Positions 3,829-57,144 are shown, counted from the stretch's first letter. The stretch is DNA of 64,000 nucleotides from an uncultured Acidobacteriaceae bacterium (GCA_963702775.1 CAVPDX010000001.1:115688-179687); one strand, 5' to 3'. Made by a program: numbers and translations. The notes: generated by a model not told the origin, from the sequence alone.

Positions 3829-3840
3829 GCCGAAAACGCC

Positions 3841-5351: not shown

Positions 5352-5377
5352 TATTAGGTAGAAACTTCAAGATCCGA

Positions 5378-39151: not shown

Positions 39152-40522
39152 TGACAATGTGGATCCCTGTCAAACACTTTTTGAGCGTACTGCTCCGTGC
39201 ACTCCGAAGAGCGCGCCATTTCGCTCTAGTTGAAGGTTTCTGCCATACCAACCAAAAGCTCGCTCGTAATCGTTTCAGGTCAGAAGCTCAGTTCGACCCA
39301 TGCATCTCTTCGGTCACAACTTCGATCATGATTACTACTTCGAACTCCTCCGTGAAGGAGGAGCGGGCTGCCCAATCAATAGCTCGATGTTCTACTGCAC
39401 ACCACGGCCTGTTCCGAGCGTGGCCGCGTGCGAATCGAACTTTTTCACTCGCTCGTAATCCCATCCCTTGTGCCACATCCAGTGCAAACGAATCGCGAGT
39501 CTCCGCGCCATCGCCACCTTGGCGATCTTCCGCCCCCGGCGCATCACCAAGTGGAAATACTTGCTGCGCCATTCCGGAAGCCTGCGAACTGTGACCTGGG
39601 CCGCTTCCACCAGCAAGAAGCGCAATATCGAACTCCCCGGTTTGGTGATATGCCCCAGTCGCCGCCGATTTCCGCTGGAATCTTCCAGCGGCACCAGTCC
39701 GAGATAGCTCGCCACCTGCTTCCCACACTGAAAGCGCTTCGCATCTCCGATGATCAACACGAAAGCCAGTGCGGTCAGCGGACCCACTCCAGGATGGGTC
39801 ATCAACCATCGTGCCTCGGGAAGCTTCTCGGCCTCTTGCTCAATCGCCTGACTCAGTTCCGCAATCGTCGGATTCAGCCGATCCAGCAACTCCAGCAGAT
39901 CGCGCCGGCGTCGGCTCGCCCAGGGAGCTAACCGGATCGACTCCAGTTGTTCCCGTCCGTGCTCCCGCCATAACCTCTTTTTGCAACGTAGCCCTTCGTT
40001 CAGGGCTACGGCTTGCAACTGATTCAGAATGCGGGTGCGCGCCTGCACCATGCGGTGGCGGTGCCACAGCAGTTGCCGCAGATCGCGATTCTCCCAGCTC
40101 GCTACCCAGATCCGCGGAAAATCATCCTTCAGCAGCAAGCGCAGAATGTGCTGTGCATCCTGGCGATCCGTCTTCTGCTTGCGTTCGCGCTTCCTGGCGA
40201 TTTCGGTGGCGTCCCCGATCCACACCTCGAAGTTCAGTTCGCCCAGGAGTCGCTCGAACCAGCGCGCATGCTCACTGGCTTCCATCCCCACACGCACTTT
40301 CATTCCCTGTACCCCAAGACCACGGTAGAACTTCTCTGCTTCCTCGCGGTGCTCAAGGCGCCGTTCCTGTAATTCCCCTGTGTCCGTATCGACAAACGCA
40401 ATTTGCTGAAAGCTCGGGTGGTAATCGCATCCTATAATCAACATATCGGCTCCTTTTCTCCCGAGCCTTTTGGTTGGTTAGCACCACCAAGTTTACTCGG
40501 GGCGTGGGAGCCAACATTGTCA
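39152..40522 (-). mobile_element. IS110/IS1111-family insertion sequence (boundaries approximate)
   Basis: TGACAATGTGGATCCC (39152-39167) matches the reverse complement of GGGAGCCAACATTGTCA (40506-40522) at 15/16 positions with 1 gap. The repeats enclose the transposase gene. Confidence 0.6.
39392..40444 (-). CDS. IS110-family transposase
   Basis: MLIIGCDYHPS... (DEDD N-terminal domain) and ...THPGVGPLTALAFVLIIGDAKRF..GKQVASYLGLVP (Transposase_20-like). Confidence 0.92.
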   Translation of the reverse strand: MLIIGCDYHPSFQQIAFVDTDTGELQERRLEHREEAEKFYRGLGVQGMKVRVGMEASEHARWFERLLGELNFEVWIGDATEIARKRERKQKTDRQDAQHILRLLLKDDFPRIWVASWENRDLRQLLWHRHRMVQARTRILNQLQAVALNEGLRCKKRLWREHGREQLESIRLAPWASRRRRDLLELLDRLNPTIAELSQAIEQEAEKLPEARWLMTHPGVGPLTALAFVLIIGDAKRFQCGKQVASYLGLVPLEDSSGNRRRLGHITKPGSSILRFLLVEAAQVTVRRLPEWRSKYFHLVMRRGRKIAKVAMARRLAIRLHWMWHKGWDYERVKKFDSHAATLGTGRGVQ

Positions 40523-40640
40523 TGGAATCAATAGCGCTCGCAACCAGAGCTTGGATTCCTGGGAGTTGACGAGCAAAAGTCGGAGCCCCTACCCGCCGAG
40601 GAACGTACCAACTTTGGCCGTGCGCGAACTCAGCCGTCGC

Positions 40641-41825
40641 TCACAGGGACAGCGCGACTTCTCTCGCGGCCTCTGTGCCCCTAACTGCACTAGCCGAGGC
40701 TCCCAGGCTGGATAATCTGCTCCCGGTGATCGCCGGCACAAGCTGAATCTGCACCAACCGCGCAGGCGCAGCATTCGACTTCTTCGCCAGCAAATTAGCC
40801 GAAGGAATGCCGGTGCGGGCAAACGATTTCTCGCAGTCCGCGGTGGAAGGACCGCGCATATTCCCCTCCATGAACGCCAGCCCGGGACAGCGAGTGCAAG
40901 TCGAGCCATGAGCGCACTGCGAGCAACTGGATAAATCGCGCAACCGAATTGAACGAACTTCTTTCAGTTGTTCGGAGTTGCGCCAGATGTCAATGAAGCG
41001 CTGCTGCCGCACGTTCCCGCAGGACAAGGGAAACTGCACGCAAGGGTAAAACTCTCCGTAGGGAGAAACGTAGCAGGCGGTATGGCCTGCGCTGCAAGGC
41101 AGGGACTGCATGCTGCTCTCATCGGGCGCGGGCGGCAGCGCACAGAACTCTTCGGCGCTGCCAACAAAAGACTCGTCCCGGAACAAGGTGTGCAGCGCGG
41201 ACTCACCCGCGTTCAAGTCGAGGATGGAGCGGTCGCCATCCATCTTCGGCGTGATCGTCGGATCCAGCGTGTAACGGGCATCGACTTCTTCCGCCAACGC
41301 GCGAACGCCGTGATAATCCTGCATATTCTGGGTCATCATCACATTGCCGACGACTACCTTGAGGCCCTGCGCCCGGAGAAAGCGGATGGCGTTGATCGAC
41401 CGGCGCAGCGAGCCGGGAAGCTTGGTGATGGCATCATGAACTTCCGGCCGGTGGGAATAAATGCTGACCTGAACCGACTCCACGCCGAGATCGCGCAGGC
41501 GCGCCGCCTGGGCTTCGCGAATGAGCACGGCATTGGTCTTGAGCTTGATGCAGAAGGTGAGATCGCGCGCGTATTCCAGAATCTCGAAAAAATCCTTGCG
41601 CAAGAAGATCTCGCCGCCGCTGAGCGTAAGAATAAAGACCCCGGCTTCAGCCATCTCCTTGAGCAAGTGCTTGATCTCAACCGTGGTCATCTCGCCGTGA
41701 TCGTCGTGATCGAGGTAGCAGTGAATGCACTTTTCGTTGCAGCGGTAGGTGAGATCAAGCTGCACGCTGAAGGGAACGCCCAAGCGCAGAGCCCGTTCAC
41801 TCATTTCCTGCATCAAGGCGCTCAT
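40641..41825 (-). CDS. radical SAM/SPASM-domain peptide-maturase-like protein
   Basis: LDLTYRCNEKCIHCYL (CX3CX2C) and a C-terminal Cys cluster CSAGHTACYVSPYGEFYPC...CSQCAHGSTCTRCPG. The ATG overlaps the PqqD stop (ATGA). Confidence 0.88.
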   Translation of the reverse strand: MSALMQEMSERALRLGVPFSVQLDLTYRCNEKCIHCYLDHDDHGEMTTVEIKHLLKEMAEAGVFILTLSGGEIFLRKDFFEILEYARDLTFCIKLKTNAVLIREAQAARLRDLGVESVQVSIYSHRPEVHDAITKLPGSLRRSINAIRFLRAQGLKVVVGNVMMTQNMQDYHGVRALAEEVDARYTLDPTITPKMDGDRSILDLNAGESALHTLFRDESFVGSAEEFCALPPAPDESSMQSLPCSAGHTACYVSPYGEFYPCVQFPLSCGNVRQQRFIDIWRNSEQLKEVRSIRLRDLSSCSQCAHGSTCTRCPGLAFMEGNMRGPSTADCEKSFARTGIPSANLLAKKSNAAPARLVQIQLVPAITGSRLSSLGASASAVRGTEAAREVALSL

Positions 41826-42163
41826 CTTTTTTGTTCTAACCCCTGTTCTAATTTCTGCACAGACGTAACCGGCTTCGGAATCGGTTGCTCGGAAATCAGC
41901 AGAATGCCATGCCTGGCCAAATCTTCGGCCAGCGCCTCGGCATCGCGCATCGCTTCCTCGGGCTTCACGTCGAACTCGGAGCAGATGCGGCGCTCCACGA
42001 TCTCATCCAACGGAGTAGCCCCGTCGGCGGCCTGCCAGAGAATGGTTGCGGTGGGGTTCAGCGTAAACAGCGTCGAACCCTGACCCGACATGACCAGCAT
42101 TTCTTCACCCAGCATGCGGGCTGCGATCCGCGGACTGCGCGCCACGTAGAGTGTCTTAGTCAT
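41822..42163 (-). CDS. PqqD-family peptide chaperone (RRE)
   Basis: MTKTLYVARSPRIAARMLGEEMLVMS...LFTLNPTATILWQAADGATPLDEIVERRICSEFDV.PEEAMRDAEALAEDLARHGIL. The ATG at 42163 overlaps the upstream stop (TAATG). Confidence 0.85.
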   Translation of the reverse strand: MTKTLYVARSPRIAARMLGEEMLVMSGQGSTLFTLNPTATILWQAADGATPLDEIVERRICSEFDVKPEEAMRDAEALAEDLARHGILLISEQPIPKPVTSVQKLEQGLEQKR

Positions 42164-43080
42164 TATCCAATCATCTCCCAGACGCGCGCATCCGGCACAA
42201 AAGTCAGCCGGTACACGGGCACGCAATCGACGAAGTCGCACGCCGCCTGAAACGCCGAGCACACCAACTCCTCGTCCTCGGCAAAGAAAAGCATATTGGC
42301 CAGCAGTTCGCGCCCGGCATCGGCTGTGGTCACGGGGTCGATGCGATTCTCCAAGCCTTTCGCCAGCAGGTAAAGCGCGGCCACCGGCGCAGACGTGTTC
42401 TCGCCCAGTTTGGCCAGTTCCCCGGTGAAGGGAGTGCCAAACGCAACATAACCCTCGCTGTGCTGAGGCACGTTCTCCTGAGAGACGTGCTTCTGAGAAA
42501 CGCTGGTGGAACCGTTGCGCTTGCGGACGTAGGAAATCTCATCCGTCAGAAGCGTAGCGTCGGCGGGTGCAAACCGCGAAATCGTAGTCTTCCCCGCTCC
42601 TGAAACTCCGGCAAACAAAAAGGCCTTGCCATTGCGTATGGCGCTGGCGGAGTGCAATAGAAATCCACCCTGCCGGGCTAGGAGCAGCGTATGCGTAATG
42701 CGCAGAACGGCGTCGATCGAATAGGGATTCAGCGACTGCTGAATCCACCCGCGGCGCGCCGCGGGATCCCATTCGGCGCGGAAATCTCCCCGTTCCATCC
42801 GCCAGCGGCCAGAGCGGTGGGTCACGCGCACATCCGCATCCGGATCGGCCAATGCAGGCCGTCTCAACTCCACGTCGAACTCGAACTCCGCATCGGCCAC
42901 GGCGCTTACAAATCCGGCGTAGCGTTCTTCCAGCAGCGCGAGAAAACCCGCATCGTCCGTGTTTACGCGGACGGCCACGCCGCCAATCGCAATCACAACG
43001 CTGCAGCGGTCGACTTGTGCGGCTAGCCCTGGCACGGATGAATCGATTCCCTTGGACCCCATACCCCACGAACCAGACAA
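42163..43080 (-). CDS. HPr-kinase-like P-loop protein
   Basis: GFLLHSASAIRNGKAFLFAGVSGAGKTTISR...LLTDEISYV. The true start is probably nearer 43035 (GTG), overlapping the end of the peptidase frame. Confidence 0.8.
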   Translation of the reverse strand: MSGSWGMGSKGIDSSVPGLAAQVDRCSVVIAIGGVAVRVNTDDAGFLALLEERYAGFVSAVADAEFEFDVELRRPALADPDADVRVTHRSGRWRMERGDFRAEWDPAARRGWIQQSLNPYSIDAVLRITHTLLLARQGGFLLHSASAIRNGKAFLFAGVSGAGKTTISRFAPADATLLTDEISYVRKRNGSTSVSQKHVSQENVPQHSEGYVAFGTPFTGELAKLGENTSAPVAALYLLAKGLENRIDPVTTADAGRELLANMLFFAEDEELVCSAFQAACDFVDCVPVYRLTFVPDARVWEMIG

Positions 43081-43531
43081 TGAAAGTAAACGAGGGCGCG
43101 TGCCGCAAGAAACGAGCGCCGAACAATCTTTGCTATCATTTTCGCGAGCACAGTCAACTCCGCGGGCACTGCGACGCGCTCACCCGCCAGGATGAAGTAC
43201 GCGATGCGGCCAAGCAACTCATTCGCGGCCACCGGAGGATCTGGAACGGGCAGCGCATCGCCTTGCGTAATCCAGCGTGGATTCTGAGAATCACCCGCAG
43301 TACCCACGACGCGATGAGCACAGGCCCGCCTTCGCGCCCTACCAGCACTAAGTCGCCGATGCGGACTTGATCGGGCGCGACTCGCTCAACCAGCAGCGTT
43401 TCGCCGGGCCAAACAGAAGGCAGCATGCTCCAGCCCGTCGCGGCGAAACGAAGCTTGCCGAATGAGCACAGAACGTCCGCCGCCAGTTCGCATTTCAGAG
43501 CGTGGGCGTCGGCAGGCGCCGGCGAACTCAT
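43023..43531 (-). pseudogene. S24/S26-family serine peptidase, interrupted by one frame change near 43310-43335
   Basis: The N-terminal part runs from ATG 43531 (GWSMLPSVWPGETLLVERV...GDLVLVGREGG). The C-terminal part, in the neighbouring frame, reads AHRVVGTAGDSQNPRWITQGDALPVPDPPV..ELLGRI. Confidence 0.7.
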
Positions 43532-43644
43532 GACACCTTCGTATTCAGTGCGCAGCCGCTTTGACTGGGGCTGATCTTGCCGCAAGTAAGCGCCGTGGTC
43601 ACGAAGACCTCTTCGCAGCGAAAGGACGGCTTCTCGTAACGCAT
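43528..43644 (-). CDS. candidate RiPP precursor peptide, 38 aa (alternative start 43698 gives 56 aa)
   Basis: Hand translation gives MRYEKPSFRCEEVFVTTALTCGKISPSQSGCALNTKVS. GC3 is 28/38 here versus 20/38 in the overlapping long frame. The TGA overlaps the peptidase ATG. The leader motif is YxxPx[LF]. Confidence 0.55.
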   Translation of the reverse strand: MRYEKPSFRCEEVFVTTALTCGKISPSQSGCALNTKVS

Positions 43645-43977
43645 TTTCTCGGTTGCCGCAGGACGCGGTTCTTGGTTCGATGAGTGATTCAATCCCATAA
43701 TGATCGTTCCCCACTATCGTAAGGCCGATTGCAGCGCCGCATCGCGCACCCGGACTCTGGTCTGTTGTTGGAAACCCATCATACACCCCTGAGTTTTGAG
43801 GAAACCCGCAAAATTTAGATGCGCAAGAAAGATTTCCACAGACATTTCCACTCCCCTTGCAACCAATAAAAGCCCGTCATGGGTTTCGTCCGCGTATTAG
43901 TATAGGAGGACGTTTGTTCCGAGCCTCCGCACAGTATCAGGCAAACAAGTGTCGGGCAAAGAAGCGAGAGGAGAGAA

Positions 43978-44340
43978 GTGCTATCAGAGCCGCTGACCAT
44001 CGAACGATTTGAAGGCGCGAATTATCAGCAGCGCGTCCTGCGCTTGACCGGGCCGTTGACGGCAGCGACGACAGAACCTTTCCAAAATGCCCTGCGGTCG
44101 GAAAATGCTGGAACCATTATTCTCGATCTAAGCCAAGTTCCTTACATCGATTCCTGCGGACTGGGATCTCTGGTTGGAACTTATGTGAGTTGCCAGAAAT
44201 CCGGCAGGCGAATGGCCTTGAGCGGCATCACCCCGCGGGTGTGGCAATTGTTTCAGATTACAAAGCTGGAGCCATTCTTCCTGGTCTTCCCCACTCTCGC
44301 GGCCGCGGTCGACGGATTGACCAACGCCGGCAGCGCATGA
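43978..44340 (+). CDS. STAS-domain anti-sigma-factor antagonist
   Basis: ILDLSQVPYIDSCGLGSLVG...(SpoIIAA-like). GTG start after GAGAGGAGAG. Confidence 0.8.
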   Translation: MLSEPLTIERFEGANYQQRVLRLTGPLTAATTEPFQNALRSENAGTIILDLSQVPYIDSCGLGSLVGTYVSCQKSGRRMALSGITPRVWQLFQITKLEPFFLVFPTLAAAVDGLTNAGSA

Positions 44341-44792
44341 TCCAGCGCTGAGAATTGGCGGAAGCGAGTGGGGGTCGAACGGGCAAAGACATTGATAACA
44401 AAGGAAATCCTCTGGAATCAATCCGGCTTCCCGATCAAAACCTTAACATCCGCCGGGGGCTAGCACAGTTTTCGTACAGCTTTGGTCTTGCATTCGCCAA
44501 AGAACCCGCACCGAACTCACCGTCTGTGCTAGCGGTTTGCTAATCGGCTTTCCCGGAGTGGTCCTCTTCGTTTTCAATAACTTATACCCGCCCTGAGGTT
44601 GCATTTTCGGGTCTATTCGGGCTTAGTCGGGTTCTTCAATGCAACGAAAATGCAACGGAGACTGACCGTGCAAACAGGCCGAAATCCGGAGGAGAAGGGA
44701 GCCTCAGCGCGGGCGCTTGCAGGCTTGCCCCAATTGTCTGTTCCTTCGGCTGCTAAAACACGGCACGACCGCTCTGTCTTGAATAGTAATCG

Positions 44793-45272
44793 CTACAGCG
44801 CCTCATAGATGTTCACAGACAGGTTCTGTGTCACTCCGCCCATCCGCTCAGGCGAATCATTCACCGCCAGAAAGAGCGCCCCCACAGGTGCCGTTGGCAC
44901 CGCTAATACGCAAAAGCGGCCCACCGCAAAGATTATGCGCGAGGGATTAGTACTGGCATCGACGGACTGATCTGCGGTACTTCCACCGATACGCCCAATG
45001 AGAGCGCCGCGAGGCGCGCTGACTAACAGCGGAGAACCTGTTATCTGCGGGCTCTGTTTGTTCTCGTAATCACCATCCGCGGAGCAGCCGCCAGCGGGAA
45101 ACCCTTTGGGCTGCCACGTCTTAGTTGGATCCGGTTCGCCATTCTGATTTACTACCACGATCTTGAGCAATTTTGTTGGATTGGCGTAGTCAAGCACCTG
45201 CGTCCATTGTGCGTTTTGAGGATCTGGGATCTGCTTTTTTTCGACGATCAGACGCCAGGCGGGTTGGGGCAT
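44793..45272 (-). CDS. LecA/PA-IL-like beta-sandwich protein (putative lectin)
   Basis: ATG at 45272 lies 7 nt after AAGGAG. The C-terminal pattern GALIGRIGGS...FAVGRF...GALFLAVNDSP....NLSVNI parallels P. aeruginosa LecA (GALVMKIGNS...GAITLIYNDVP...SFSVNI). Confidence 0.6.
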   Translation of the reverse strand: MPQPAWRLIVEKKQIPDPQNAQWTQVLDYANPTKLLKIVVVNQNGEPDPTKTWQPKGFPAGGCSADGDYENKQSPQITGSPLLVSAPRGALIGRIGGSTADQSVDASTNPSRIIFAVGRFCVLAVPTAPVGALFLAVNDSPERMGGVTQNLSVNIYEAL

Positions 45273-45403
45273 TTCCGTTCTCCTTACTTCGAAGTCACCA
45301 CCAAATGCAGTTGATCGGACGCTAAAAGCTGTTCCTTCTTCGTATCCGCTTCCAAAAGAACGAAGCAAGGCGCACTCGCTTTGTCCTGCGCACTGGAAGA
45401 CGT

Positions 45404-46006
45404 TTGCCCGACAGCATGGACCCGCACCTGCATGCCCAAGTCAATACATTACCAGTTCGAAGCGGGTACACGCCGTACCAGGTTGGCGTCGACGATATTT
45501 GCAATTATGAATTTCGGTATCAGTACGATGGCTGGATCGACTCCTGGCTGGATCGGAATACTATTGCCGCGCTCCAAAGCAGCGCGATCTGGATGGACGA
45601 TGACTCGTTCATCAAGCCGCTTTCATTCGCAAGTCTCGGCGATCTGAATCAGTGGCGCGAGACGCTTAGCGAAAAGCTGGAATCAGCCACCTCTATCGTC
45701 GTCTTTGAGGGGTCCATCGACGCCAACCTGCTTGACAAGTTCCCGGACAGCGAGTGGACTTATCGCCTCGAAGACGCCATTTCCGTAATATTCCCACTGG
45801 CGGCAAGCGGAGCTCTTGCAACATTTGAGTCCGTCTACCGTTCGGGCGAGTTGGTTTACACTAGTTGCGTTGAGCATGTCTCGCGCTTCTTCGAGCGGAC
45901 CTACTCCCTGGCGCAGCAGCTGCGGAACGTCGGATCATTGATAGTCACTCGGGTCCGATCCCGCAGGGGGTTGGCAGATACCCTCGGCATCTTCTTGAAC
46001 GAGTGA
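45404..46006 (+). CDS. hypothetical protein
   Basis: 200-aa ORF with a TTG start (ATG at 45416 also possible). I recognise no motifs. Confidence 0.45.
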   Translation: MPDSMDPHLHAQVNTLPVRSGYTPYQVGVDDICNYEFRYQYDGWIDSWLDRNTIAALQSSAIWMDDDSFIKPLSFASLGDLNQWRETLSEKLESATSIVVFEGSIDANLLDKFPDSEWTYRLEDAISVIFPLAASGALATFESVYRSGELVYTSCVEHVSRFFERTYSLAQQLRNVGSLIVTRVRSRRGLADTLGIFLNE

Positions 46007-46166
46007 TCCTGGTACCTGCACCATAGCGCGCATCCTCCAGCGGTGCCGATCAAAGCGGTGGAAGGCTGCTTTTCCGGCACGACGCGGAGGGCGTGTTTCC
46101 GGCCACTACCCGCCTAGATCCTCTTCCCAAAAAACACGCCCTCCAATTTCAGTTAAGGAGGGCTTC

Positions 46167-46396
46167 GTGAGAATTGAAGAGAATGCTCCCTATTGTCCGG
46201 CGCCAACCAGATGCGGCGCCGAACGACCTTTGCTTGTCCATCACGTCGCCAAGCTGATCCACCGTGAACGTCGAACGGTTCGCCGCCTTGCACAAACTGA
46301 CCAACTGCACGGATTTAAGCTGGGTGGCGGCGGACAATTTGGGGCTTTTGGCGCGCCGACGTCGAACGCTTTCTTGGGGGGCATGATGAACTCTAG
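46167..46396 (+). CDS. excisionase/MerR-type HTH protein, probably needing a frame change near 46325-46340
   Basis: LLVHHVAKLIHRERRTVRRLAQTDQLHGFKLGG is in the track frame. The canonical ending IWGFWRADVERFLGGHDEL* is in the next frame, with a TAG at 46394-46396. Confidence 0.45.
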
Positions 46397-47096
46397 CTCC
46401 AAGAAACCTAGGGCCAGTCGCATCCCGGCGCTGGAAGTCGAACTTACGAAGAGCCCAGACGGCAAGCTGCGTTCGTTCCGCGTCTCCATCGGCACAGCGG
46501 CCGTCATGGTGCTTTTGATGTGTCTTAGAGGGGGAGCTAGCGACAGCTGGCTCCCTGCGTTGAAATGGATCGTCGCAATAGTGCGCTGAATTGGCTGGAC
46601 CGAGCGCAGCAGTTGCCGACAGGCACGCTCCGACGCGCAGCTGCGCTTTAAAGCCATCCAGAATTCAAGCCCTGCATCTCACGAAGGACCCGTGGCACTA
46701 ACGACGAGAGTTTCTTGGCAGTGAAACGCATTTCATGCCGGAAGATCATCAAATCCAGGAACACCAGGACAACATCAGGAACATCATCGACAGCAACAGT
46801 ATCGGCGGTGGGGCAGAGTTAATTCGTGCAAGAAGAGGAACGACGAGCAGCAGTGAGGAGAAGGATGAGCAGCAGGAGGATGATGAAGAGGAGAATGAGC
46901 AGGATGATGATGGTGACGATGATGAGGAGCAGGAGGAGAATGAGCCACCGATGAGCGGCAGCTATCTAGGAAGAATGCGGACAATCCGCCTCCGCCGGCA
47001 CCACCGCCGGCGCCGCCACCGCCACCACCACCGCCACCACCACCGCCAACTGGCCGCCGCCCGGTCGCCGGCCCCAAAGCCCAGGATGCAGACTTA

Positions 47097-48428
47097 TCAG
47101 TGCTGTGTTAGTCCCTCCGATTCCGGTTCGTTGAGCAACTTGAGTCGTCGCTTGATGCCTTGCTGGATCGAAGTTGCCACTGATTCAGGAAATCCCGTTG
47201 GTAGGTCGGACACGACTGAGTCAACTACCGCCGATGCAGAGTCCCGCAGTTCTTCGAAGATGCCTCTAACCACGCTTCCCCCAACACCCGCTTTCTCGGC
47301 CGTTTGGAAAAAATGGCGCGGAGCAATATTCATGATTTTGTAATGGCGCTTGGAACCGACTGCCATAGCTAAGCGGAACTGTTTCCAGAGTATCTGTTTT
47401 ACATCAACGCTTGGTTGAGCTGAGATTACGTCATAGAACGGAGTCAGGCGGAATCGCCCACCGGATGACAGAAAGACGCTGAAATTCTTCGCATGTCCGT
47501 CCGTGGCTCCGAGCAACCAATAGATGATATTAGCTTTCAAGAACGATCGCTGATCCGCAATAGGTTCGTCGCTTCCTCGTAGTAGTTGAAGTATTTTCTC
47601 AATGCCTGGTCCACCATCGCTCTCGTACTTAAGATTCGGAGAAACGGAGAGTGCTTGGCAGCAGTCCTCTTGGGGAAGGCGCAGCAGCCTCTTGTCAGCG
47701 GTCCATAGCCTGTCGAATCGTTCGACAACGAGGACTCGTTTGTCTCCGAAGGATGACATTTCGGCGTTTGCCGCGGCAAGGTCCAATCCTTTTACAATCT
47801 TCAGACAGAGATATTCGTTTTCTACGCTATAAGTTAGATCTATTCCGTTTGGAAGGCGACCGACCGAAGGTTTTAAGATATGGGTTGTAGCTGTAGTACC
47901 GCGGGGCTTGTACCATTCTCCGTTCAAGAGGAGGAGTGCCGTTTTCTCCTGTGCACCGGCAATGGAGATGCGGAAGCTTTCGTCCTCTGTAATCCCGAGT
48001 GGAGCGGTCGCTAAATTGTCTAGTATTTCTGTAATTTCGCGCTCGTTAACCGGAACACCGTCCACAGCTCCAGGTGGGCCTGGCTGCGAGTCCCGCGGTA
48101 GGAACTGAAGGGCGCCGACACAATCGTGACCAATCGCTCCGAGAAGGCTGTATGCATCCGTTCCTTCAGCGCGCGCGCGCGCAGCGATTCGTCGCCGAAG
48201 GGATTCGTTGTCGGGCAAGAGGTTCTCAAAGACCGCAATTACGGGCGCGCCGGTGTACTCTTGCTCACGTATCGGGAGAGAGAGCGAAACGGGGATGGCT
48301 GGCGGCCATGCGATCCAAGAATGATCGTATTGGAAAGAGATTGCCCCTGAGATTTCACGACGCAGTTCGCCGACGAGGCGGCTGTTTAGAAATGTGCTCA
48401 CCGGTTCATAGCGCGCGCGTCGAGGCAT
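47097..48428 (-). CDS. hipA: type II toxin HipA-family kinase
   Basis: N-terminal coupling domain, ISIAGAQEKTALLL and GATDGHAKNFSVFL. The start overlaps the hipB stop (TAATG). Confidence 0.9.
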   Translation of the reverse strand: MPRRARYEPVSTFLNSRLVGELRREISGAISFQYDHSWIAWPPAIPVSLSLPIREQEYTGAPVIAVFENLLPDNESLRRRIAARARAEGTDAYSLLGAIGHDCVGALQFLPRDSQPGPPGAVDGVPVNEREITEILDNLATAPLGITEDESFRISIAGAQEKTALLLLNGEWYKPRGTTATTHILKPSVGRLPNGIDLTYSVENEYLCLKIVKGLDLAAANAEMSSFGDKRVLVVERFDRLWTADKRLLRLPQEDCCQALSVSPNLKYESDGGPGIEKILQLLRGSDEPIADQRSFLKANIIYWLLGATDGHAKNFSVFLSSGGRFRLTPFYDVISAQPSVDVKQILWKQFRLAMAVGSKRHYKIMNIAPRHFFQTAEKAGVGGSVVRGIFEELRDSASAVVDSVVSDLPTGFPESVATSIQQGIKRRLKLLNEPESEGLTQH

Positions 48429-48676
48429 TAAAATAGCGCCTCAATGTCTTTCGCTGATGTTTTGGTTCTGGGTCGAATAACCATTTCGAGATCGAGTGCG
48501 GCAAGCGCCGAAAGCAGTGTGGCTGTTCGCATTGTTGCCAATGTTTCCAAAGCGGAGACTGTGGACTGCCGAAGCCTAATTCGCGAGGCTAGCTCTGCTT
48601 GCGTTAGCCCAAGTTCAGTACGTCTTTGTCGAAGTAGATTGCCGAGTTGTTTAGGTGTGCGGGCGACTTGTTCCAT
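48428..48676 (-). CDS. hipB: HipB-like XRE-family antitoxin
   Basis: LGNLLRQRRTELGLTQAELASRIRLRQSTVSALE (HTH_3). Confidence 0.85.
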   Translation of the reverse strand: MEQVARTPKQLGNLLRQRRTELGLTQAELASRIRLRQSTVSALETLATMRTATLLSALAALDLEMVIRPRTKTSAKDIEALF

Positions 48677-48690
48677 ATGTGTTTTGCCTT

Positions 48691-48817
48691 ATTTGCGGTG
48701 TTCCGATGAATCCCATTATGCGATTTTCCGCATGAGCACGATTTATACGGTTTTCCGAATAATAGCACTTTATACGGTTTCCCGCATAGAAAGTATTTAT
48801 GCGGTTTTCCGTATGAG
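48691..48817. promoter_or_regulatory. five phased operator-like imperfect palindromes upstream of hipB
   Basis: [AT]T[GA]CGG-TTTT-CCG[CTA]AT-type sites start near 48693, 48718, 48745, 48772 and 48799, with spacing of 25-27 bp. Confidence 0.65.
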
Positions 48818-49189
48818 ATGACTGCTGGCCCCCTTACATAAGTTCTGTGTTCCAAGAGATCGATAGCGAGTCCTGCGGGAACGTAGGCCACCTTCAGTTC
48901 ATCACAGGCCTCTTGGCTACGCCTAGGGCCTCAAACGCCAAGCGCCTCAACGAAACACTGAAAGCCGCCGCAAAGCCTGTGCAATCAATATATGGCGGGT
49001 TCAGTCGGAACACACGGGTATTCCCTAGGCTACATTTCGGCCACGCCAGCCGCGTGTTCACGGGCAAAGTTCTAGCGGCCCGAGTCAGTGGCGTTCCGTG
49101 TGCCACGCTGATAGCAAACGACTTGAACGTGTAACAGGTATCAGTTGACGGTATCATCGCCAGTTGCGGCCACCGTAGCTCCCCGTGAG

Positions 49190-49343
49190 CGAGTCTGATC
49201 TTCAGTGACCGAATTTTCGATTCCAGAGTAGACCGTGGGATGCCGAGCTTACGGACGCGCCAGATGGTCCCGAATACCCAGCCTCCACGTTCGCATAAAG
49301 CCGCCTCAATTATGCTGCGCGCGCACCAACTCATCGTGATCAA
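49190..49343 (-). pseudogene. C-terminal remnant (Fis-type HTH) of a sigma-54-dependent activator
   Basis: ...IIEAAL.ERGG......KLGIPRSTLESKIRSLKI is the typical last ~45 residues of NtrC/FhlA-type activators. No AAA+ or receiver part precedes it. Confidence 0.55.
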
Positions 49344-49373
49344 TGACGAACACCTTGAGAGCGCCCGCGGGTA

Positions 49374-52366
49374 TCATCCATTGCCCTCGATTTTGGTAGG
49401 TAGGGTGAAAGCAAAGCATGCGCCACGGGGAGAGTTGTTGGCAGCCCATAGGCGCCCGCCATGCGATTCAATGATGGAGCGGCTGATCCGTAGTCCCATG
49501 CCGGTGCCGTGAGGTTTGGTTGTAAAAAACGCATTGAAGATCTGGTCCGCCCGCTGCGAGGGAAGCCCTATGCCGGTATCGCTGACGGACACCTGAAGTT
49601 GCTCGTTTTCCGCCCGCTGAGACGCGATGGTTATCTCGCGTGTTCCGTCCACATCCTTCATCGCATCGATGCTGTTCATGATCAGGTTCATGGTGACCTG
49701 CTGCAATTGGACGCGATCTCCCATGATCAGGGGAAGGTCTTCCGACAGTTCTGTGCGCATTTCGACGGAGTATCGGGTAGCCTCGCTGCGCAAAAGTTCG
49801 GTCATTCCTCGAATGATGTCGTTTACATCAACCAACTCTCGTTGCGCAATTTCCTTCTTGAAGAGCGAGCGGATGCGGCTCATGATCTCGGCGGCTCGGG
49901 CTGTATCCTTGACGACTCGTGATGCAGCCGCGCGTGCCTCTTCCAGATCAGGCTGTTCGCGCGCAAGCCAGCGCAAGCAAGTACTGGCGTCGGTGACGGC
50001 GGCGGCAATCGGCTGATTCACTTCGTGCGCCAGCGAGGCAGTCAATTCTCCCATGGTGGTCATCCTATTTATGTGCGCGAGATCCGCCTGGGCCTCCCGC
50101 AATCGTTCGCGTTCTTCACGCGCCCGCTTGCGTTCAATGGCGATGCCAGCGAGATGGGTGGCCATTTCCAAGGCGCGGGTCTCAGATGGATTCGGACTGC
50201 GCGGTTCGCGGTAATACATGGCAAACGAGCCCAGCGCCTTGCCCGAATGCGCCAGGATGGGAGTGGACCAGCAGGCACGAAGCCCCGTGGCGCGCGTGTC
50301 GCCCGTCCTCATCGAGGAGAAGAACAGAGCAAAGTAAGCCGGCAAATTGTGCTTCCACAACCAATACTAGCTTCTCCAGTATTTCCGTTAGCGGAGCATC
50401 GCGGGCTATCATCTCCAAAATGCGGTTCTCTCCCTCACGCAGTGCTGTTGCCAGCTTGCGCTCGGTGATGTCCATCATGGTACCCACAAATTGCACCAGA
50501 TCCCCGGATGCGTTCAAAACAGGATGGCCGACGGTATGAGTGTGTTTGACCGTGCCGTCCGGAAGAAGGATTCGGTGTTCCCCTTCGTAATCCGATTTTT
50601 CAGCGATTGCTCGATCGGTCGTCTCTTGCCACTCGGTTCGATCCTCCGGATGCATACGCTGCAGGCGTTTTCTCCAAGCCGACAGGCCCTCTTTCGGATC
50701 AAAGTTATATATGCGATAGCATTCCTCGGAGAGATGCACAGCGTCTCTTTCTGGCAGCTGCCAGGCCCAACTCCCCGTATGCGTGAGCCTTTGCGCTTCT
50801 GCAAGATAACTTTCGCTCCGCCGCAGCGCTTCTTCTGACTGGGTGCGTTCTGTGACGTCGCGGACGGCAGCAGAGACAAGCGTGCCCCCTTCCGTTTCCA
50901 GCGGACTGAGACTGATTTCCACGGGAAACTCCGTTCCGTCCTTCCGCCGGCCATACAGCTGCATGCCTTCACCCATCCGCCGCACCCGAGGCTGGGCAAA
51001 GAACTCCGCGCGTTTTTGAGGGTGTGAACCTCGAAATCGTTCCGGCACCAAAATCTCAACCGCTTGCCCCAGCAGTTCGTCCCGCTGATACCCAAACAGC
51101 TTCTCGACTTGAGCATTGACCAAGGCGATCCTGCCCTGCCGATTCATGACGATCATTGCGTCCGGAGCGGATTCCAGAAGCCCGCGGAATTTCTGCTCGG
51201 CCTGCTTGCGCTCGGTGATGTCGATCACGGTGCCCACGTATTCAACGAGATCGCCGGATGGACTGAAAACGGGATGACCTACGACATGGATGTCTCTGAC
51301 GTCGGCGCCGGGATGAATGATTCGATAATCCAGCTCGAACTCCGCTTTCTCGCGCCCCGCTGTCTCGACCGCTTTTCTAAGTTTGGCTTGATCATCGGGA
51401 TGGATGCGATTAAAGAATGTTTCGTATCGCGGCAGTCCACCCTGCGGATCAAAACCCACCACGCGGTAGCATTCCTCGGAGAAGTACCTGATCTCGCCCA
51501 TGGCAGGTGTCGATGCCCAACTGCCAGTGTGGCTGAGCCTCTGCGCTTCTGCCAAGTATGCCTCGCTCTTCCGGAGCGTCTGTTCCACTTGTTTTGCCGC
51601 GGTGACGTCCATCACCGCTCCCACGAACTCTACGCTGCCCGATTCATCGCTTATGGCACGAGCCACAACATGGATATGCTTGATGGAACCATCGGGCATC
51701 AGCAAGCCGTGTTCAATATCAAAATCCTTCCCCTCCTGGGACGCGTGTTCAATGGTCTGTTGCACGAGCACCGCATCCTCCGGATGAACCCGTTGGAGGA
51801 CGCGTTCCGCGGTAGGTGTCGTGTTTCGGTCGTATTGGAAAATTCGAAAAGTTTCCTCTGACCATATGAGTTCGCCGGTTGAGGGTTTCCAGCCGAGGCT
51901 GCCCGTGTGGCTGAGCCCCTGTGCCTCCGCTAGGTAAGTCTCGTTCTGACGGAGCGCCTCCTCGACCCGTTTACGTCCGACTGTGAGTTGGTCGCGAGCT
52001 TGGAGAAGCTCTGCCTCGACGCGGCGCCGAACGGCGGCGAACCAAGTGAGAAGTAAAGCGAACAGTACGAAGACAGCGTAGTGCGGGATCTCAGAGCGCG
52101 TAACGTAGAAGCTGTAACGGGGCCCCGTGAAGAAGTAGTCGAAGCTTAAACTTGAAAGTACAACAGCAAGAATCGCTGGCCCGATCCCTGCGTACCAGAC
52201 AGTTACGACGATGGCAAACAGGAAAAGTGGCACTTCCACGTTGCGGAAACCGTAGCGTTGTGCCAGAAGCGCCGAGCCCAGGGCAATGGCGGAGGAAGCC
52301 GCTGCGAGCCCGTAGCGCAGAACGGGGGGACTGGGCGAACTGCGATTGGAGTTTCGGTTGGGCCAT
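49374..52366 (-). pseudogene. DUF4118/PAS x4/GAF/HisKA/HATPase sensor histidine kinase, disrupted at two points
   Basis: One frame change sits at the G6 run 52324-52329, between [14 protein letters not shown] and [20 protein letters not shown].... A second frame change plus about 55 missing GAF codons lies near 50281-50298, where [13 protein letters not shown] is joined to [11 protein letters not shown]. Confidence 0.7.
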
Positions 52367-52420
52367 GGTTCGCCTCACATCAAAGTCTTATAACATGTGA
52401 GTTGCCTGTGCGCTCACGCT

Positions 52421-54022
52421 TCACGGTGCCGCGACCAAAGGCAATTCAATGAAGCTGGCTTGGCCGGGCGCGTGATACACGCGCTGTTCGGTCTTGCGGT
52501 AGTCGTCCGACTTCGCCCAAAAAACGTTGGGAACAAAAGTTTGCGGATTACGGTCATACAGCGGGAACCAGCTTGATTGAATCTGCACCATGATACGGTG
52601 TCCGGGCACGAAGACGTGGTTGGCCGTGGGAAGGTTGAAGCGGTAGAGGAGAGGTTGGCCGGGGCTGATGGGACGTGCGGTTTCCAGGCTCTCGCGATAG
52701 CGGCCACGGAAGATGTCGGCGGAAATCATCAACTGATACCCGCCCTTCGAAGCGTCGCCGGCAACCTGGTCGGGATACACGTCGATCAACTTGACCACCC
52801 GATCGCTGTCCGTGCCGCTGGTGGAGGCGACGAGATTGGCGACGGGCTGTCCGCTCAGAACATCGCGTGCAGACGGAAAACTGATGTCAAGCACTACGAG
52901 ACGATATTCGAGGATTTGCATGCTGAGATCTCGAACGATCTTGTTGAGCCAAAGTGGGTCGATGCGCGCATCCGCACAGACAGCCGGTCTCGCTAAACCG
53001 CGACGTAGGCGATCTGTCAGAAACGGCAAATCCTGAGTGCTCAGATCTATGAGGCCAAAGAGACCACCCTCCTTCAAACAGCTGACCGCCCAGGAAAGAG
53101 TATCGAACTTGTCGGGATGGTCGTGCAGCGTAAATAATGCCAACCCGCAATCAAAGGGGCCGCGTCGGTGAAGCTCACTGCGATCGGAGGTGTAGCAGCA
53201 CCTGCGGCTGCAACACGCTTTCTTTGCTAACTCCACCATTGATGGCGACGAATCGTATCCTATATAGGCTTTTTCTTCTCGGCCAGAACATAAAATCGGA
53301 CCCACGCCACCCACGCCGCAACCAATCTCGAATATGCGCATTGGTTCGAAATCACGCATCCACTCTTCGATGGTTATTCCGAGGCTCCAAGTCGGGTGAT
53401 ACCAGCGCTCGAGGCGTGCTATGAAATCGCCGTACTGTCCTGAAACGCTTGAAAAATGCTCCCTCACAGTCTCCACCGAAGGCGCTCGATGACTCTTATG
53501 GCAATCGTTTGCATATGCGTCAACCGCTGCCAAGAGCGCGTCTTCACTGGCCACAGCATTGCCACCCGCTTGAAGGGCGCCAAGCGTAAAGCGGTCTTCG
53601 TAAAGAACACCGGAATCTCTATAAAGATGATTCTCACCTCGGAAGAGTCCGATCACTGGGATGCCAAAAGCAAATGCGATGCCAATTTTTCCTGCAAGGG
53701 CACTACTAAGAGGGCTGCTAGCTAAAAAGGCTACGACAACGTCGCAATCAAGAAGCATAGCCGTCTCTTCTCGAAACATGCTTTCTGCAGATGGTGTCTC
53801 CCCATGCATAGCATGTCGATCTAAGGACGGGACAACCTGATATCCAGCATGTTTAAGCCGATCCGTACTCCGGTCAACGAAGGCTCTGTCGGAGTCGATT
53901 TGTGGCGCACCGATCCAGTAGATCTTGTTCTTTGGTCCGTGTTTTTGCATATCGTGTAGAGAGTGACTTGAAGGGCCCGTCTGGTCGATTAATCGTTTCA
54001 CGACGACCTTCAAAAAAGGCAC
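52421..54022 (-). CDS. chimeric ORF: Rossmann-like N-domain + class I SAM methyltransferase + C-terminal fragment of a CocE/NonD (X-Pro dipeptidyl-peptidase C-terminal) hydrolase
   Basis: IFEIGCGVGGVG (MTase motif I). The last ~145 aa, LSGQPVANLVASTSGTDSDRVVKLIDVYPD...MVQIQSSWFPLYDRNPQTF, are the PepX_C-type domain. The junction is near 52860. Confidence 0.6.
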   Translation of the reverse strand: MPFLKVVVKRLIDQTGPSSHSLHDMQKHGPKNKIYWIGAPQIDSDRAFVDRSTDRLKHAGYQVVPSLDRHAMHGETPSAESMFREETAMLLDCDVVVAFLASSPLSSALAGKIGIAFAFGIPVIGLFRGENHLYRDSGVLYEDRFTLGALQAGGNAVASEDALLAAVDAYANDCHKSHRAPSVETVREHFSSVSGQYGDFIARLERWYHPTWSLGITIEEWMRDFEPMRIFEIGCGVGGVGPILCSGREEKAYIGYDSSPSMVELAKKACCSRRCCYTSDRSELHRRGPFDCGLALFTLHDHPDKFDTLSWAVSCLKEGGLFGLIDLSTQDLPFLTDRLRRGLARPAVCADARIDPLWLNKIVRDLSMQILEYRLVVLDISFPSARDVLSGQPVANLVASTSGTDSDRVVKLIDVYPDQVAGDASKGGYQLMISADIFRGRYRESLETARPISPGQPLLYRFNLPTANHVFVPGHRIMVQIQSSWFPLYDRNPQTFVPNVFWAKSDDYRKTEQRVYHAPGQASFIELPLVAAP

Positions 54023-54419
54023 CTAACGCGATGCGGTAGGTTGTTCAGTCCTCATCATCGAACCAAACAATTTCCGACCATCGGTCCTCGGGAACATGCA
54101 CCGCTAGAAGCCGCGCTCGGGTTGCGATGCGTTGATATGTCTTGCGGTCCCCGCATTCGTTTTGTAATCCAGCTTTGGCGAGATTGAGAATCGCCCGATC
54201 CTCCCACTTCGCGGATCTACGCCGCCGTTCGGCTCTCGGGGGTACTTCGATTTGAATGATCGAGTTCCGCTCGGGCTGGACTTGGAAATCAGGGGTGACC
54301 CGTCAGAAGGCTGCTTGTGCGGCTATAGCCACGCCGGGCGGCAGCACCGGGTCACCGCCAACACCCGCGTCTGGGGTATCGCTGAAGAGAAAAACGGCAG
54401 GAGTTGCAGCGCCGGATAA

Positions 54420-54731
54420 GACACCGGGGAGACTGCCCCTCTGGTAGCAGCCCCCGAGGTCAAGAAGCGGACGGTCGAGGACGAGATGGAGACGCATCTG
54501 GCCGCCAAGAAGAGCGAGGGCCTGAGCGCCGCGACTCTCCGCAAATTGAAATACCAGCTTGGAACGTTCGAGCAGTTCCTATCCGCGAGGTCGAAATTCT
54601 TCCCGTCTGAGATCACCTCAACCGATGCATCGCCCGAGTACCGCAGCCATTTCATGCAGGAGCAGTCCCGCACGAAGGAACGGTTCCTCCGGCGGGAGTA
54701 CCTGCAGTCGCTTTGGTGGGCTCGAACATAG
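54420..54731 (+). pseudogene. tyrosine-integrase N-terminal (SAM-like) domain remnant
   Basis: ...KKRTVEDEMETHLAAKKSEGLSAATLRKLKYQLGTFEQFLSARSKFFPSEIT... with no catalytic domain before the tRNA 108 nt downstream. Confidence 0.45.
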
Positions 54732-54838
54732 ACGGCAACGACTGGGCGTCTCTCAATCATGCCCCCAGCCTAGCCACAGTATCTAGCACACCCGATGGCA
54801 CCAAAGTGCAAATCTTCAGTAACCATGCGGGTTTGAAA

Positions 54839-54936
54839 TGGCGGAAGCGAGTGGGGGTCGAACCCACCGGTGACAGGAAGACCTGCCGCCCGCCGGTTTT
54901 GAAGACCGGGACGATCACCGGACCGCATGCGCTTCC
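54839..54936 (-). tRNA. selC: tRNA-Sec (anticodon UCA), CCA encoded
   Basis: GGAAGCGCAUGCGGUCCGGUGAUCGUCCCGGUCUUCAAAACCGG...GUGGGUUCGACCCCCACUCGCUUCCGCCA. It has a 6-bp D-stem with a 4-nt loop and a long variable arm, and its overall layout parallels E. coli selC. Confidence 0.85.
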
Positions 54937-54943
54937 GAAAACA

Positions 54944-55040
54944 ATCGCCACGGATTTTCACTGACTTCACAGATCAGTTCCTGACTTGCCCTCGGCACTG
55001 ATAAGACGATCCCTGTGAATCCGCGCAAATCCGTGGCTTG
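54944..55040. repeat. second copy of the CACGGAT REP-type palindrome (downstream of peroxiredoxin gene)
   Basis: ATCGCCACGGATTTTCAC ... GTGAATCCGCGCAAATCCGTGGC. The right arm nearly matches 21820-21838. Confidence 0.7.
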
Positions 55041-55061
55041 GTTTTCGCAGGCCGCCACGGC

Positions 55062-55754
55062 TCACTTCGGCTGCGGCACAATCCGCAGATAAGGCCGCGG
55101 CGCCTTCCACCCTCCCGGATACTTCTGCTGCGCTTCCTCGTTCGACACCGAAGGCAGGATAATCACTTCCTCGCCCTGCTTCCAGTTCACCGGGGTCGCA
55201 ACTTTGTGCTTGGCCGTAAGTTGTATCGAATCGAGCACGCGCAGGATTTCATCGAAGTTGCGGCCCGTGCTCATGGGATAGGCAAGCTGCAGCTTGATCT
55301 TCTTGTCGGGGCCGACCACGAACACCGTGCGCACCGTGGCATTATCCGCCGCTGTGCGTCCTTCGGAAGTGTGACCGCTCTCGGCCGGCAACATGCCATA
55401 CAGCTTCGCAATCTTCAACTCCGGGTCGCCGATCATGGGATAGTTCACCTTGTGCCCCTGCGTCTCCTCAATATCGGAGGCCCACTTGCCGTGGCTGGTC
55501 ACCGGGTCCACACTCAAGCCGATAATTTTCGTATTGCGCTTGGCAAACTCCGGTTGCAAGCCCGCCATATAGCCCAGTTCGGTGGTGCACACCGGCGTAA
55601 AGTCCTTGGGATGGGAAAATAAAATCGCCCAGCCGTCGCCAATCCACTGGTGAAAGTGAATCGTGCCCTGTGTGGTTTCGGCCGTGAAATCAGGAGCAGT
55701 GTCGTTAATGCGGGGGATTCGGCCGGTAGTCTCGCTTGCAATCGCGGTGCTCAT
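55062..55754 (-). CDS. peroxiredoxin (1-Cys/Prx6-like)
   Basis: WAILFSHPKDFTPVCTTELG, about 230 aa, with an RBS (GGAGA) upstream. Confidence 0.9.
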   Translation of the reverse strand: MSTAIASETTGRIPRINDTAPDFTAETTQGTIHFHQWIGDGWAILFSHPKDFTPVCTTELGYMAGLQPEFAKRNTKIIGLSVDPVTSHGKWASDIEETQGHKVNYPMIGDPELKIAKLYGMLPAESGHTSEGRTAADNATVRTVFVVGPDKKIKLQLAYPMSTGRNFDEILRVLDSIQLTAKHKVATPVNWKQGEEVIILPSVSNEEAQQKYPGGWKAPRPYLRIVPQPK

Positions 55755-55773
55755 AATTTTTCTCCTTGTTTAA

Positions 55774-55818
55774 TCAATTTCGTTGAACTCAATTTCGTTA
55801 AATTCAATTTCGCTCGAA
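55774..55818. repeat. 3 x 15-bp tandem repeat (TCAATTTCGTTGAAC-like) just upstream of the peroxiredoxin gene
   Basis: Read directly. It lies 20-64 nt upstream of the start at 55754. Confidence 0.85.
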
Positions 55819-56214
55819 GTGTTTAAGATGGCCAGCCGCGGCCTTGATTTGGAAGAGCCTCGCGTGAAAACGAAACCCACCCATTTCGCCGGGTGGGTTG
55901 GAAGAAATCCAGAGTCGGTCCCTACCCGCACGGCGGTGAACACATGCAACAACACGCGGCGCCGGCGTTGGAGGGGCAGAACACCAAGTTAGGATAGAAG
56001 CCCGCACCAAACGCTGTCAACCGCGGGACCGCGCGCTTACTCTGTGTAAGCCTGTGTTCTCTGAGTTGAGCATTTTTAGTAAGGAGCACTGGATGCAGGA
56101 GCAGCCGCCTCGGCTGCCGCCGCGCGACGCGAGGCAACTCCTTTACACTTTCCCTGCATCGACAAAGCGAAAGCTCGCATCTGTAGTTGTTCAAGGCAGG
56201 TCTTAGAGCAGTTC

Positions 56215-57144
56215 ATGAGCCAACCACAACGGCGTCTATCAATGACACAATGGGACGTTTTCTCTTCGCGTCCACTCGAAGGCAATTCGCTCGCCGTAAT
56301 CCACGACGCCCGCGGCCTGAACCGACGCCGAGATGCAGTCGATCGCCAAGGAGATGAATCTCTCCGAGACCACATTCATCCTGCCCCGCGATGCCGCCAC
56401 CGAGCGCGAGCAAGGCATTCGCGTCCGCATCTTCACTGTGCAGGAAGAACTGCCGTTCGCCGGCCATCCCACGCTCGGCACCGCGTTCGCGCTGCGCGGC
56501 CGGGTTACCGAGAAACGGCGCGCAAGAAATCGTCCTTGAACTCAACGTCGGCAAAGTGCCAGTCCATTTCGAAAACTTGGATGGCGAACCTCCCTTCGGC
56601 GAGATGACGCAGATCGATCCCACGTTTGTAATGCAGCACGACCGCGAAGCCGTAGCGCAGCTACAGGATTGCGTCCCGAAGATTTCGACGATTCCCTTCC
56701 CATCGAAACCGTTTCCACCGGAGTTCCCTTTCACGGTCGCTCCGTTGAAATCGCTGGCGGTCGATGCAGAATCTGCAGATCGATCTCAGCCGCGCCGCCG
56801 AATATCTAGCCAAGACCGCAGGCAAGTTTTTTTATTTCGTCACTCGCGAAACAGTTGATCGCGATGCCCGCCTCCACGCCCGCATGCTGTTCTACAACGG
56901 CGAGGACCCCGCCACCGGCTCCGCCGCCGGTTGCACCGCGGCTTGGATGGTAGCCCACGGCGTGGCCCAGCCCGACGAACGCGTCCTCATCGAACAAGGC
57001 GTCGAGATGAAACGTCCCAGCCGGATTTTTGTGCGTGCGTCTTTCGATAACAAGCGCGATAGCAAGAGCAGCGATAACCGCGTAGTTAACGTGCGCGTCG
57101 GCGGCCACTCGGTGGAAATCATGCGCGGCGAAATTTTTCTTTAG
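56215..57144 (+). pseudogene. PhzF-family isomerase gene with five single-base frame changes
   Basis: PhzF-like sequence is recovered only by switching frames 1>2>0>2>0>1 near 56320, 56514, 56657, 56730 and 56762. The recovered blocks are VFSSRPLEGNSLAVIHDARGL | [22 protein letters not shown]...[12 protein letters not shown] | [17 protein letters not shown]... | TGLRPEDFDDSLPIETVSTGVPF | TVAPLKSLA | MQNLQIDLSRAAEYL...GEDPATGSAAG. Confidence 0.8.

Follow-up and report, generated by a model that had tools for sequence, protein, structure and literature searches.

Genomic islands of Escherichia coli and Shigella such as LEE, SHI-2 and PAI I-536 lie at selC, the gene for tRNA-Sec, and in these islands the integrase is often degraded and the island has become fixed (PMC6174562, PMC7545054). 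Smaller elements that carry a tyrosine recombinase and are found at tRNA 3′ ends, the tycheposons, have been described in Prochlorococcus and other marine bacteria. Their integrase subclades are tRNA-specific, and their remnants take the form of partial tRNAs, fragmented integrases and degenerate pieces beside the tRNA; tRNA-Sec is not among the targets given there for Prochlorococcus islands (10.1101/2020.12.28.424599). Here we analyze 64,000 nucleotides from an uncultured Acidobacteriaceae bacterium (GCA_963702775.1, CAVPDX010000001.1:115688-179687; this whole stretch is called the window, and positions are counted from its first nucleotide). Within it, positions 44356–54863, between a STAS gene and a tRNA-Sec gene, are very probably what is left of a small integrative element after decay, and the family to which this element belongs is abundant in soil populations of Acidobacteriaceae and Candidatus Sulfotelmatobacter.

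The right border of the island is a tRNA-Sec gene on the minus strand (54839–54936). ARAGORN reports a tRNA-SeC of 98 nt with the anticodon tca, and the Rfam covariance model RF01852 accepts the gene over model positions 1–91 of 91, at 64.1 bits where the gathering score is 47. Aligned to the model, the gene has CUUCAAA as its anticodon loop, six base pairs in the D stem and a long variable arm, in agreement with a first-pass annotation of this DNA that had proposed a tRNA-Sec with a UCA anticodon and these same features. Read on the plus strand, the end of tRNA-Sec from the T loop to CCA appears as its reverse complement, the 25-mer TGGCGGAAGCGAGTGGGGGTCGAAC. That annotation had also pointed out an exact recurrence of these 25 nt directly after the STAS gene, and the recurrence is real: the window has two copies of the 25-mer, both exact, starting at 44356 and 54839, where shuffled sequence gives an expectation of none, and no further copy is found in the window with up to 8 mismatches allowed. 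Since the bases flanking the two copies differ, the repeat is exactly 25 nt long. The copy at 44356–44380, the attR core, begins 15 nt past the stop of the STAS gene (43978–44340), and the copy within the tRNA gene (54839–54863) is the attL core. The island therefore has the borders of a genomic island, with an intact tRNA-Sec on one side and, on the other, its 3′ end repeated at 25/25 nt. The tRNA-Sec is kept in 102 related loci. The window's own tRNA-Gly and tRNA-Cys have 3′ ends without repeat copies.

Comparison with relatives, referred to here by L numbers, reveals the same site without the island. A scan for the 25-mer in one genome per species returned 118 blocks, nearly all from metagenome-assembled genomes of Acidobacteriaceae or Ca. 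Sulfotelmatobacter. In a related species (L031), tRNA-Sec begins 17 nt after the STAS gene and the 10-kb insert is absent. The STAS protein of L031 has 87.5% amino acid identity to that of the window; L031 2346–2749 aligns with window 43975–44380, and L031 2719–2822 with window 54833–54936. To the right follow peroxiredoxin, PhzF-like, response-regulator and ABC genes in the order of the window, and to the left lies a cluster resembling those for ribosomally synthesized and post-translationally modified peptides (RiPPs). With STAS directly joined to tRNA-Sec and both flanks conserved, the site in L031 is empty, as the first-pass annotation had anticipated for island-free relatives. In L071, the STAS gene and tRNA-Sec are separated by 4.7 kb of unrelated ABC-transporter genes, with a degenerate copy (TGGCGGATGAGTGGGTCGAA) of the tRNA end on the STAS side. 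This insert (L071 record coordinates 1179–5789) encodes an ABC ATPase and a 1205-aa permease/M1-peptidase-like fusion, without an integrase, and is probably an older, fully domesticated insertion at the same tRNA-Sec site. Orphan copies of the tRNA-Sec 3′ end are present in ~16 other species. Together with the sites in L031 and L071, they identify tRNA-Sec as a recurrent insertion site in this clade. In L059 (7770–7970) and L094 (5528–5656), an orphan copy lies just 79 nt ahead of the next copy, and these closely spaced copies may be scars of excised or deleted elements.

The integrase that is characteristic of these elements is intact in several relatives. In L072, L054 and L110, an open reading frame (ORF) of 388 aa has its start ~65 nt from the 3′ end of tRNA-Sec, with transcription leading away from the tRNA. 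It matches Phage_integrase (PF00589, E = 1.5e-5) and the PHROG family phrog_1 ‘integrase’ (E = 5e-20), HRFR and ERHY motifs are visible in the integrase sequence of these relatives, and a 152-aa gene with a weak match to HTH_17 (helix-turn-helix, HTH) comes after it. A search with the reconstructed N-terminus of the window integrase, described below, found the protein P0001, which is 86% identical and is encoded in L126 in the same peroxiredoxin/tRNA-Sec neighbourhood as in the window. The integrase family comprises 448 clusters at E <= 1e-10, most of them with a precomputed PF00589 match and one carrying the NCBI name ‘tyrosine-type recombinase/integrase’. Target counts rest on the 80 loci returned by a metagenome scan for the integrase. 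In 46 of these, tRNA-Sec lies 64–137 nt upstream of the integrase, while the neighbour is tRNA-Ser (GGA or CGA) in ~14 and tRNA-Cys in two. Such neighbours suggest target switching, mostly among tRNAs with long variable arms; the members adjacent to tRNA-Ser or tRNA-Cys are L141, L167-L169, L172, L175, L176, L196 and L199-L206. Intact family integrases, found in dozens of soil contigs as far from tRNA-Sec as the window remnant is, along with the empty site in L031, bear out the initial view of the window locus as a tRNA-targeted island that has lost its integrase.

Complete elements between direct repeats occur in L137 (3.7 kb, 26-nt repeat), in L173 (7.5 kb, 26-nt repeat) and, at tRNA-Cys, in L175 (8.5 kb). 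The element in L137 contains the integrase, the HTH gene, four small ORFs and nothing else, and L173 has additional genes for an AAA_25 ATPase and endonuclease VII. The window island and L137, a complete relative, both lack phage structural and replication genes, and the family is one of small integrative elements, neither prophages nor conjugative elements. A prophage origin receives no support from IMG/VR, where the one integrase found is 57% identical, has neither a tRNA nor an att copy beside it and is not in a clear phage setting. In L127 (2347–4692), a truncated family integrase at tRNA-Sec is followed by PhdYeFM/PIN toxin-antitoxin and DruA (Druantia) genes, which indicates that some family members bear defence cargo. 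Of the integrase gene, L018 and L040 retain only the first 22 or 10 codons next to tRNA-Sec, along with the arm. The truncations in L018, L040 and L127 show that erosion of such elements is common. L126 has, in addition, a second integrase and HTH gene adjoining tRNA-Gly (49–1939), and this HTH gene is 72% identical in nucleotides to the HTH remnant of the window.

Further signs of the family are found just inside the two borders. The exact octamer CTAGCACA occurs at 44460 (+), 44525 (−) and 54783 (+) and nowhere else in the 64 kb, and all three copies sit at most 170 nt from an island end. On the attL side, the arm (54761–54838) carries tandem CTAGC(C)ACA..CTAGCACA repeats and is 96% identical to L018, with a 1-nt insertion in one repeat when compared with other tRNA–integrase gaps. 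A tandem CTAGCACA pair ~12 nt apart is present in 43 of the 46 tRNA-Sec/integrase gaps. The attR-proximal arm (44381–44545) contains the copies at 44460 and 44525. These 165 nt inside attR are 85–86% identical to L065 and L033 and 71–73% to L073 and L121 (inside orphan repeats), and the attR-side segment is conserved in five other species. L137 has a second CTAGCACA pair ~85–100 nt inside attR. The CTAGCACA repeats may serve as arm-type binding sites for the integrase.

Within the window the integrase gene is not only truncated but scrambled, and blastn comparison with L126 maps the breakpoints to the nucleotide, at 54256/7, 54311 and 54627. From 54627 to 56025, integrase codons 1–40, the arm, the tRNA and the peroxiredoxin gene are co-linear with L126, and codons 1–40 (54627–54760, minus strand) keep their original orientation. 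The adjoining 317 nt (54311–54627, plus strand) hold codons ~41–142, inverted in place relative to L126, with 89% nucleotide identity and one in-frame stop. The next 55 nt (54257–54311, plus strand) hold codons 143–161, also inverted in place, with 94.5% nucleotide identity. Codons 162–388 are deleted, and with them the whole catalytic domain, including the tyrosine-recombinase residues R..HxxR..Y. Beyond the deletion lie the C-terminal ~63 codons of the family's HTH_17-like gene (54045–54256, minus strand), a putative excision or regulatory gene that is present in 52 loci and was missing from the first-pass list. Its segment 54052–54256 matches the C-terminal third of the L126 HTH gene, and the remnant has 84–89% amino acid identity to the gene downstream of the integrase in L150, L158 and L159. 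About the first 89 codons of this gene are also lost, making ~0.9 kb of integrase and HTH sequence in total. Un-flipping both inverted segments yields 168 residues, which are 86% identical to the L158 and L159 integrases in a gap-free alignment. Homology to intact integrases thus confirms the N-terminal remnant previously proposed beside the tRNA, although it is not a simple truncation, as codons 41–161 are on the opposite strand. No intact integrase was found within the 64-kb window.

Because the flipped segments retain their original order, a single inversion is insufficient to explain the arrangement. The inversion junctions share 0–1 nt. A search around the breakpoints, both in the window and in L126 as the reference, detected no inverted repeats and no microhomology of use, which leaves a shufflon-like switch, or recombination between inverted repeats, without support. 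Candidate routes may include a deletion combined with two in-place inversions in succession, a single template switch of several steps, or break-and-rejoin. Template-switch mutations give in-place reverse-complement segments with little or no homology at their junctions (PMC5453318, PMC7954356). The in-place flips of the window, with their 0–1 nt of junction homology, are like short-range mutations of this type, but the arrangement is larger and more complex than typical events, with adjacent segments of 55 and 317 nt and a ~0.9-kb deletion. A single complex replication error or break-and-rejoin may have flipped both segments and deleted the ~0.9 kb, and if this is true the locus would be a large, clean bacterial case of multi-step template switching.

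The composition, divergence and distribution of the island bear on its age. Its G + C content is 55.6% compared with 58.0% outside, 2.4 points lower, and falls below all 136 equal-sized outside stretches (57.1–59.3%). The AT-richness that had been noticed by eye thus holds weakly: the G + C content is the lowest, but tetranucleotide usage is ordinary and the composition only mildly atypical. Element-derived DNA is 89–95% identical to L126 and L018, while adjacent host genes are 78–81% identical. That the element DNA is closer across species than the host flanks fits horizontal spread among related species. These values, together with core repeats that agree at 25/25 positions and preserved arms, make the earlier description of the island as old a relative one, and it is not demonstrably ancient. 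The island is present in 7/7 contigs that encode an identical STAS protein, and these are 95.5–99.98% identical to the window in nucleotides. The island is fixed throughout the sampled strains that have this protein, and no empty site within the same population exists among the seven contigs.

Between the borders, the cargo includes both uninterrupted and broken genes. Closest to attR, a 159-aa gene (44793–45272, minus strand) has a predicted PA-IL/LecA-like lectin fold: the AF2 model has a pLDDT of 91.4, and the best Foldseek match is 1L7L (PA-IL/LecA; E = 2.5e-5, prob 1.00, TM (target) 0.72). No sequence-family match was found in Pfam (including PA-IL), NCBIfam or PDB, so the LecA-like gene of the first-pass annotation stands at the level of fold but not of sequence. 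In L210 (191–3202) and L211 (6927–10504), the LecA-fold gene ends a conserved operon of four genes, encoding 118, ~478, 237–420 and ~160 aa. The last 48 codons of the gene preceding it in this operon remain in the window (45287–45430, minus strand; tblastn and blastn to L210), and homology to L210 stops at 45431, leaving the operon truncated. A 200-aa ORF without a family match follows (45404–46006, plus strand; ORF call), and then a 140-aa ORF (46167–46589, plus strand) with a weak match to the NCBIfam MADS1 HTH (E = 0.004). The suggestion that the latter is an excisionase-type HTH gene is weakly supported by this match; the family's own HTH gene is the remnant at 54045–54256, and the 140-aa ORF was rejected as a second copy of it (BLASTP against the L137 HTH gene, E = 0.46).

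Also as first annotated, a hipBA module is present. It consists of an intact hipA toxin kinase gene (47097–48428, minus strand; HipA_C 1.4e-49, Couple_hipA 1.3e-26) and an adjacent hipB antitoxin gene of the HTH_3 type, found by domain search, that overlaps the hipA start (48428–48676, minus strand). The Couple_hipA and HipA_C kinase and the overlapping upstream HTH_3 gene are shared with HipBA type II toxin-antitoxin modules on mobile elements, and hipBA may aid the persistence of the island as an addiction module. In strain L001, hipA is interrupted by a 635-bp fragment with an IS3 OrfA-like peptide (L001 13674–14308, at window ~47657–47662) that is absent from the window and the other strains. 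This interruption indicates that the HipBA module is dispensable.

Towards the tRNA, the genes are mostly damaged. An ORF at 48894–49343 (minus strand) has no Pfam match, and its first ~50 aa, read by eye, resemble the Fis-type HTH with which NtrC-like regulators end; this tail may be all that is left of a response regulator downstream of the kinase. A sensor histidine kinase pseudogene (49374–52239, minus strand; DUF4118, PAS repeats, GAF, HisKA and HATPase by domain search) is split near 50330, in the GAF domain, by an out-of-frame internal deletion that is common to L001, L002 and L128. A kinase near tRNA-Sec in L026 was considered as a sign that the kinase is native; it is a different paralogue and provides no evidence. 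At 52421–54022 (minus strand), domain search identifies a chimeric 533-aa ORF that combines a nucleoside deoxyribosyltransferase-like part with a methyltransferase and with the final ~125 positions of a CocE/NonD hydrolase. The split kinase, the regulator tail, the truncated operon and this ORF account for the broken or chimeric genes already suspected in the island, and its uninterrupted cargo is hipBA, the lectin-fold gene and the ORFs at 45404–46006 and 46167–46589. PADLOC recognized no defence system in the window cargo, and no identical protein was found for the peroxiredoxin, the ABC ATPase, the 685-aa PAS protein or the 145-aa remnant ORF.

Outside the island, the RiPP-like cluster to the left of STAS (40641–43786) contains radical SAM/SPASM, PqqD, ScmC-like and S26-like peptidase genes and a 56-aa peptide ORF, and is conserved in L103, L024, L041, L073 and L121. 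The 3.3 kb at window 37210–40531 are replaced by ~1.9 kb of unrelated sequence in L001 and L002, which are otherwise 98–99% identical to the window.

Several observations weigh against the reading of the island as a decayed member of this family. The integrase family scores 25.3–25.8 bits, just under the Pfam gathering threshold of 27.1, and a PDB sequence search with the integrase profile returned nothing. The composition of the island is near that of the host, with the 2.4-point G + C difference accompanied by an ordinary tetranucleotide distance. The pattern of an excised circle (attP), arm repeat–core–arm repeat, had 0 matches in JGI metagenomes, so the activity of the family is deduced from anatomy only, and the roles given to the HTH protein and the CTAGCACA repeats are likewise putative. 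None of the window cargo genes is among the ~200 other loci fetched, which makes the original cargo indistinguishable from later accretion. Such accretion is at the centre of one alternative, a composite island in which the newest element (the integrase and HTH remnant with both arms) lies alongside older element debris and captured host-like kinase, regulator and hydrolase fragments, the whole having grown next to the tRNA as in the tycheposon model. This origin is possible but doubtful. It would fit the interior, which is a mosaic of truncated genes of unrelated origins with a second, unrelated HTH ORF in the middle and an uneven G + C content (~54.5–55.5% at 44–49 kb versus ~57–58% at 49–53 kb), and island growth of this kind is a published model (bioRxiv 10.1101/2020.12.28.424599). 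Complete family members are also smaller (3.7–8.5 kb), although an ancestral size of ~11.4 kb would be close to that of the 8.5-kb members. Also against a composite origin, the arms at both ends are of one family, and there is no internal att copy, even with 8 mismatches; tandem elements are not demonstrable for the same lack of a degenerate internal att site.

The preservation of the core (25/25) and of CTAGCACA repeats at both ends means that a cognate integrase could act in trans, and the island may accordingly be non-autonomous but still mobile, excised and moved by an integrase from elsewhere in the genome or the community. Similar soils commonly contain intact integrases with 80–86% identity to the remnant. 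Against this stand the occurrence of the island in all seven sampled population contigs, the missing attP junction, the 1-nt insertion in an attL-side repeat and the lack of an intact integrase in the window, and we consider continued mobility quite unlikely. Taken jointly, the readings left open, that the integrase was scrambled in one complex event and that the non-autonomous island is still moved in trans, are unlikely. Far less probable is a scrambling that arose in assembly, from a gene that is in fact only truncated, or even intact. The sequence probably comes from long-read metagenome assembly, and indel errors are possible in view of the PhzF-family gene to the right of the island (56242–57141): to match its intact 289-aa homologue in L126, the reading frame would have to change at least four times, which reflects either a pseudogene or such errors. 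In-place inversions of 55 and 317 nt are unlike indel-type errors, however, and L128, an independent assembly from another sample, matches window 54198–54897 with 1 mismatch in 700 nt and reproduces all three junctions, which argues that the scrambled arrangement is not a one-off misassembly.

The reading that we favour, a decayed small integrative element, suggests the following sequence of events. From the anatomy of the family, a ~390-aa tyrosine integrase would recombine an element-borne copy of the last 25–26 nt of tRNA-Sec with the chromosomal gene, probably helped by the downstream ~150-aa HTH protein and by the CTAGCACA arm repeats that flank the core. Integration would restore tRNA-Sec and leave the far end with a 25-nt direct repeat. 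Comparison with relatives shows that the element entered the window lineage between the STAS gene and selC. It was then immobilized by the deletion of integrase codons 162–388 and the ~89 first HTH codons, with codons 41–142 and 143–161 each flipped. The cargo, too, has decayed to a patchwork, and the island is no longer self-mobile. The selC islands of E. coli and Shigella share with the window the target tRNA-Sec, insertion at its 3′ end, a tRNA-end repeat at the far border and an integrase beside the tRNA. The window differs from them in its phylum, Acidobacteriota, in an integrase that is not detectably a close relative of theirs, with no PDB sequence match and a sub-threshold Pfam score, in the much smaller size of its elements (3.7–11 kb), and in cargo that is not related to virulence. 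As far as descriptions can be compared, tycheposons resemble the window in small size, tyrosine recombinase, tRNA 3′-end target and decayed remnants; in contrast to them, the window element lacks any replication or helicase-primase module, and genes for AAA_25 and endonuclease VII are present in one relative, L173.

This locus, an island of an ordinary kind in a little-studied phylum, does not alter how genomic islands are currently understood, and all that merits a note is the double in-place inversion and how large the family is in soil Acidobacteriota. The locus provides a well-resolved example of how small integrative elements are immobilized and decay. It also shows that selC, the classic island site of enterobacteria, is an integration hot spot in Acidobacteriota too, and it defines a large, previously undescribed family of elements in abundant uncultured soil bacteria, with tRNA-Sec, tRNA-Ser and tRNA-Cys as targets and recognizable arm repeats.

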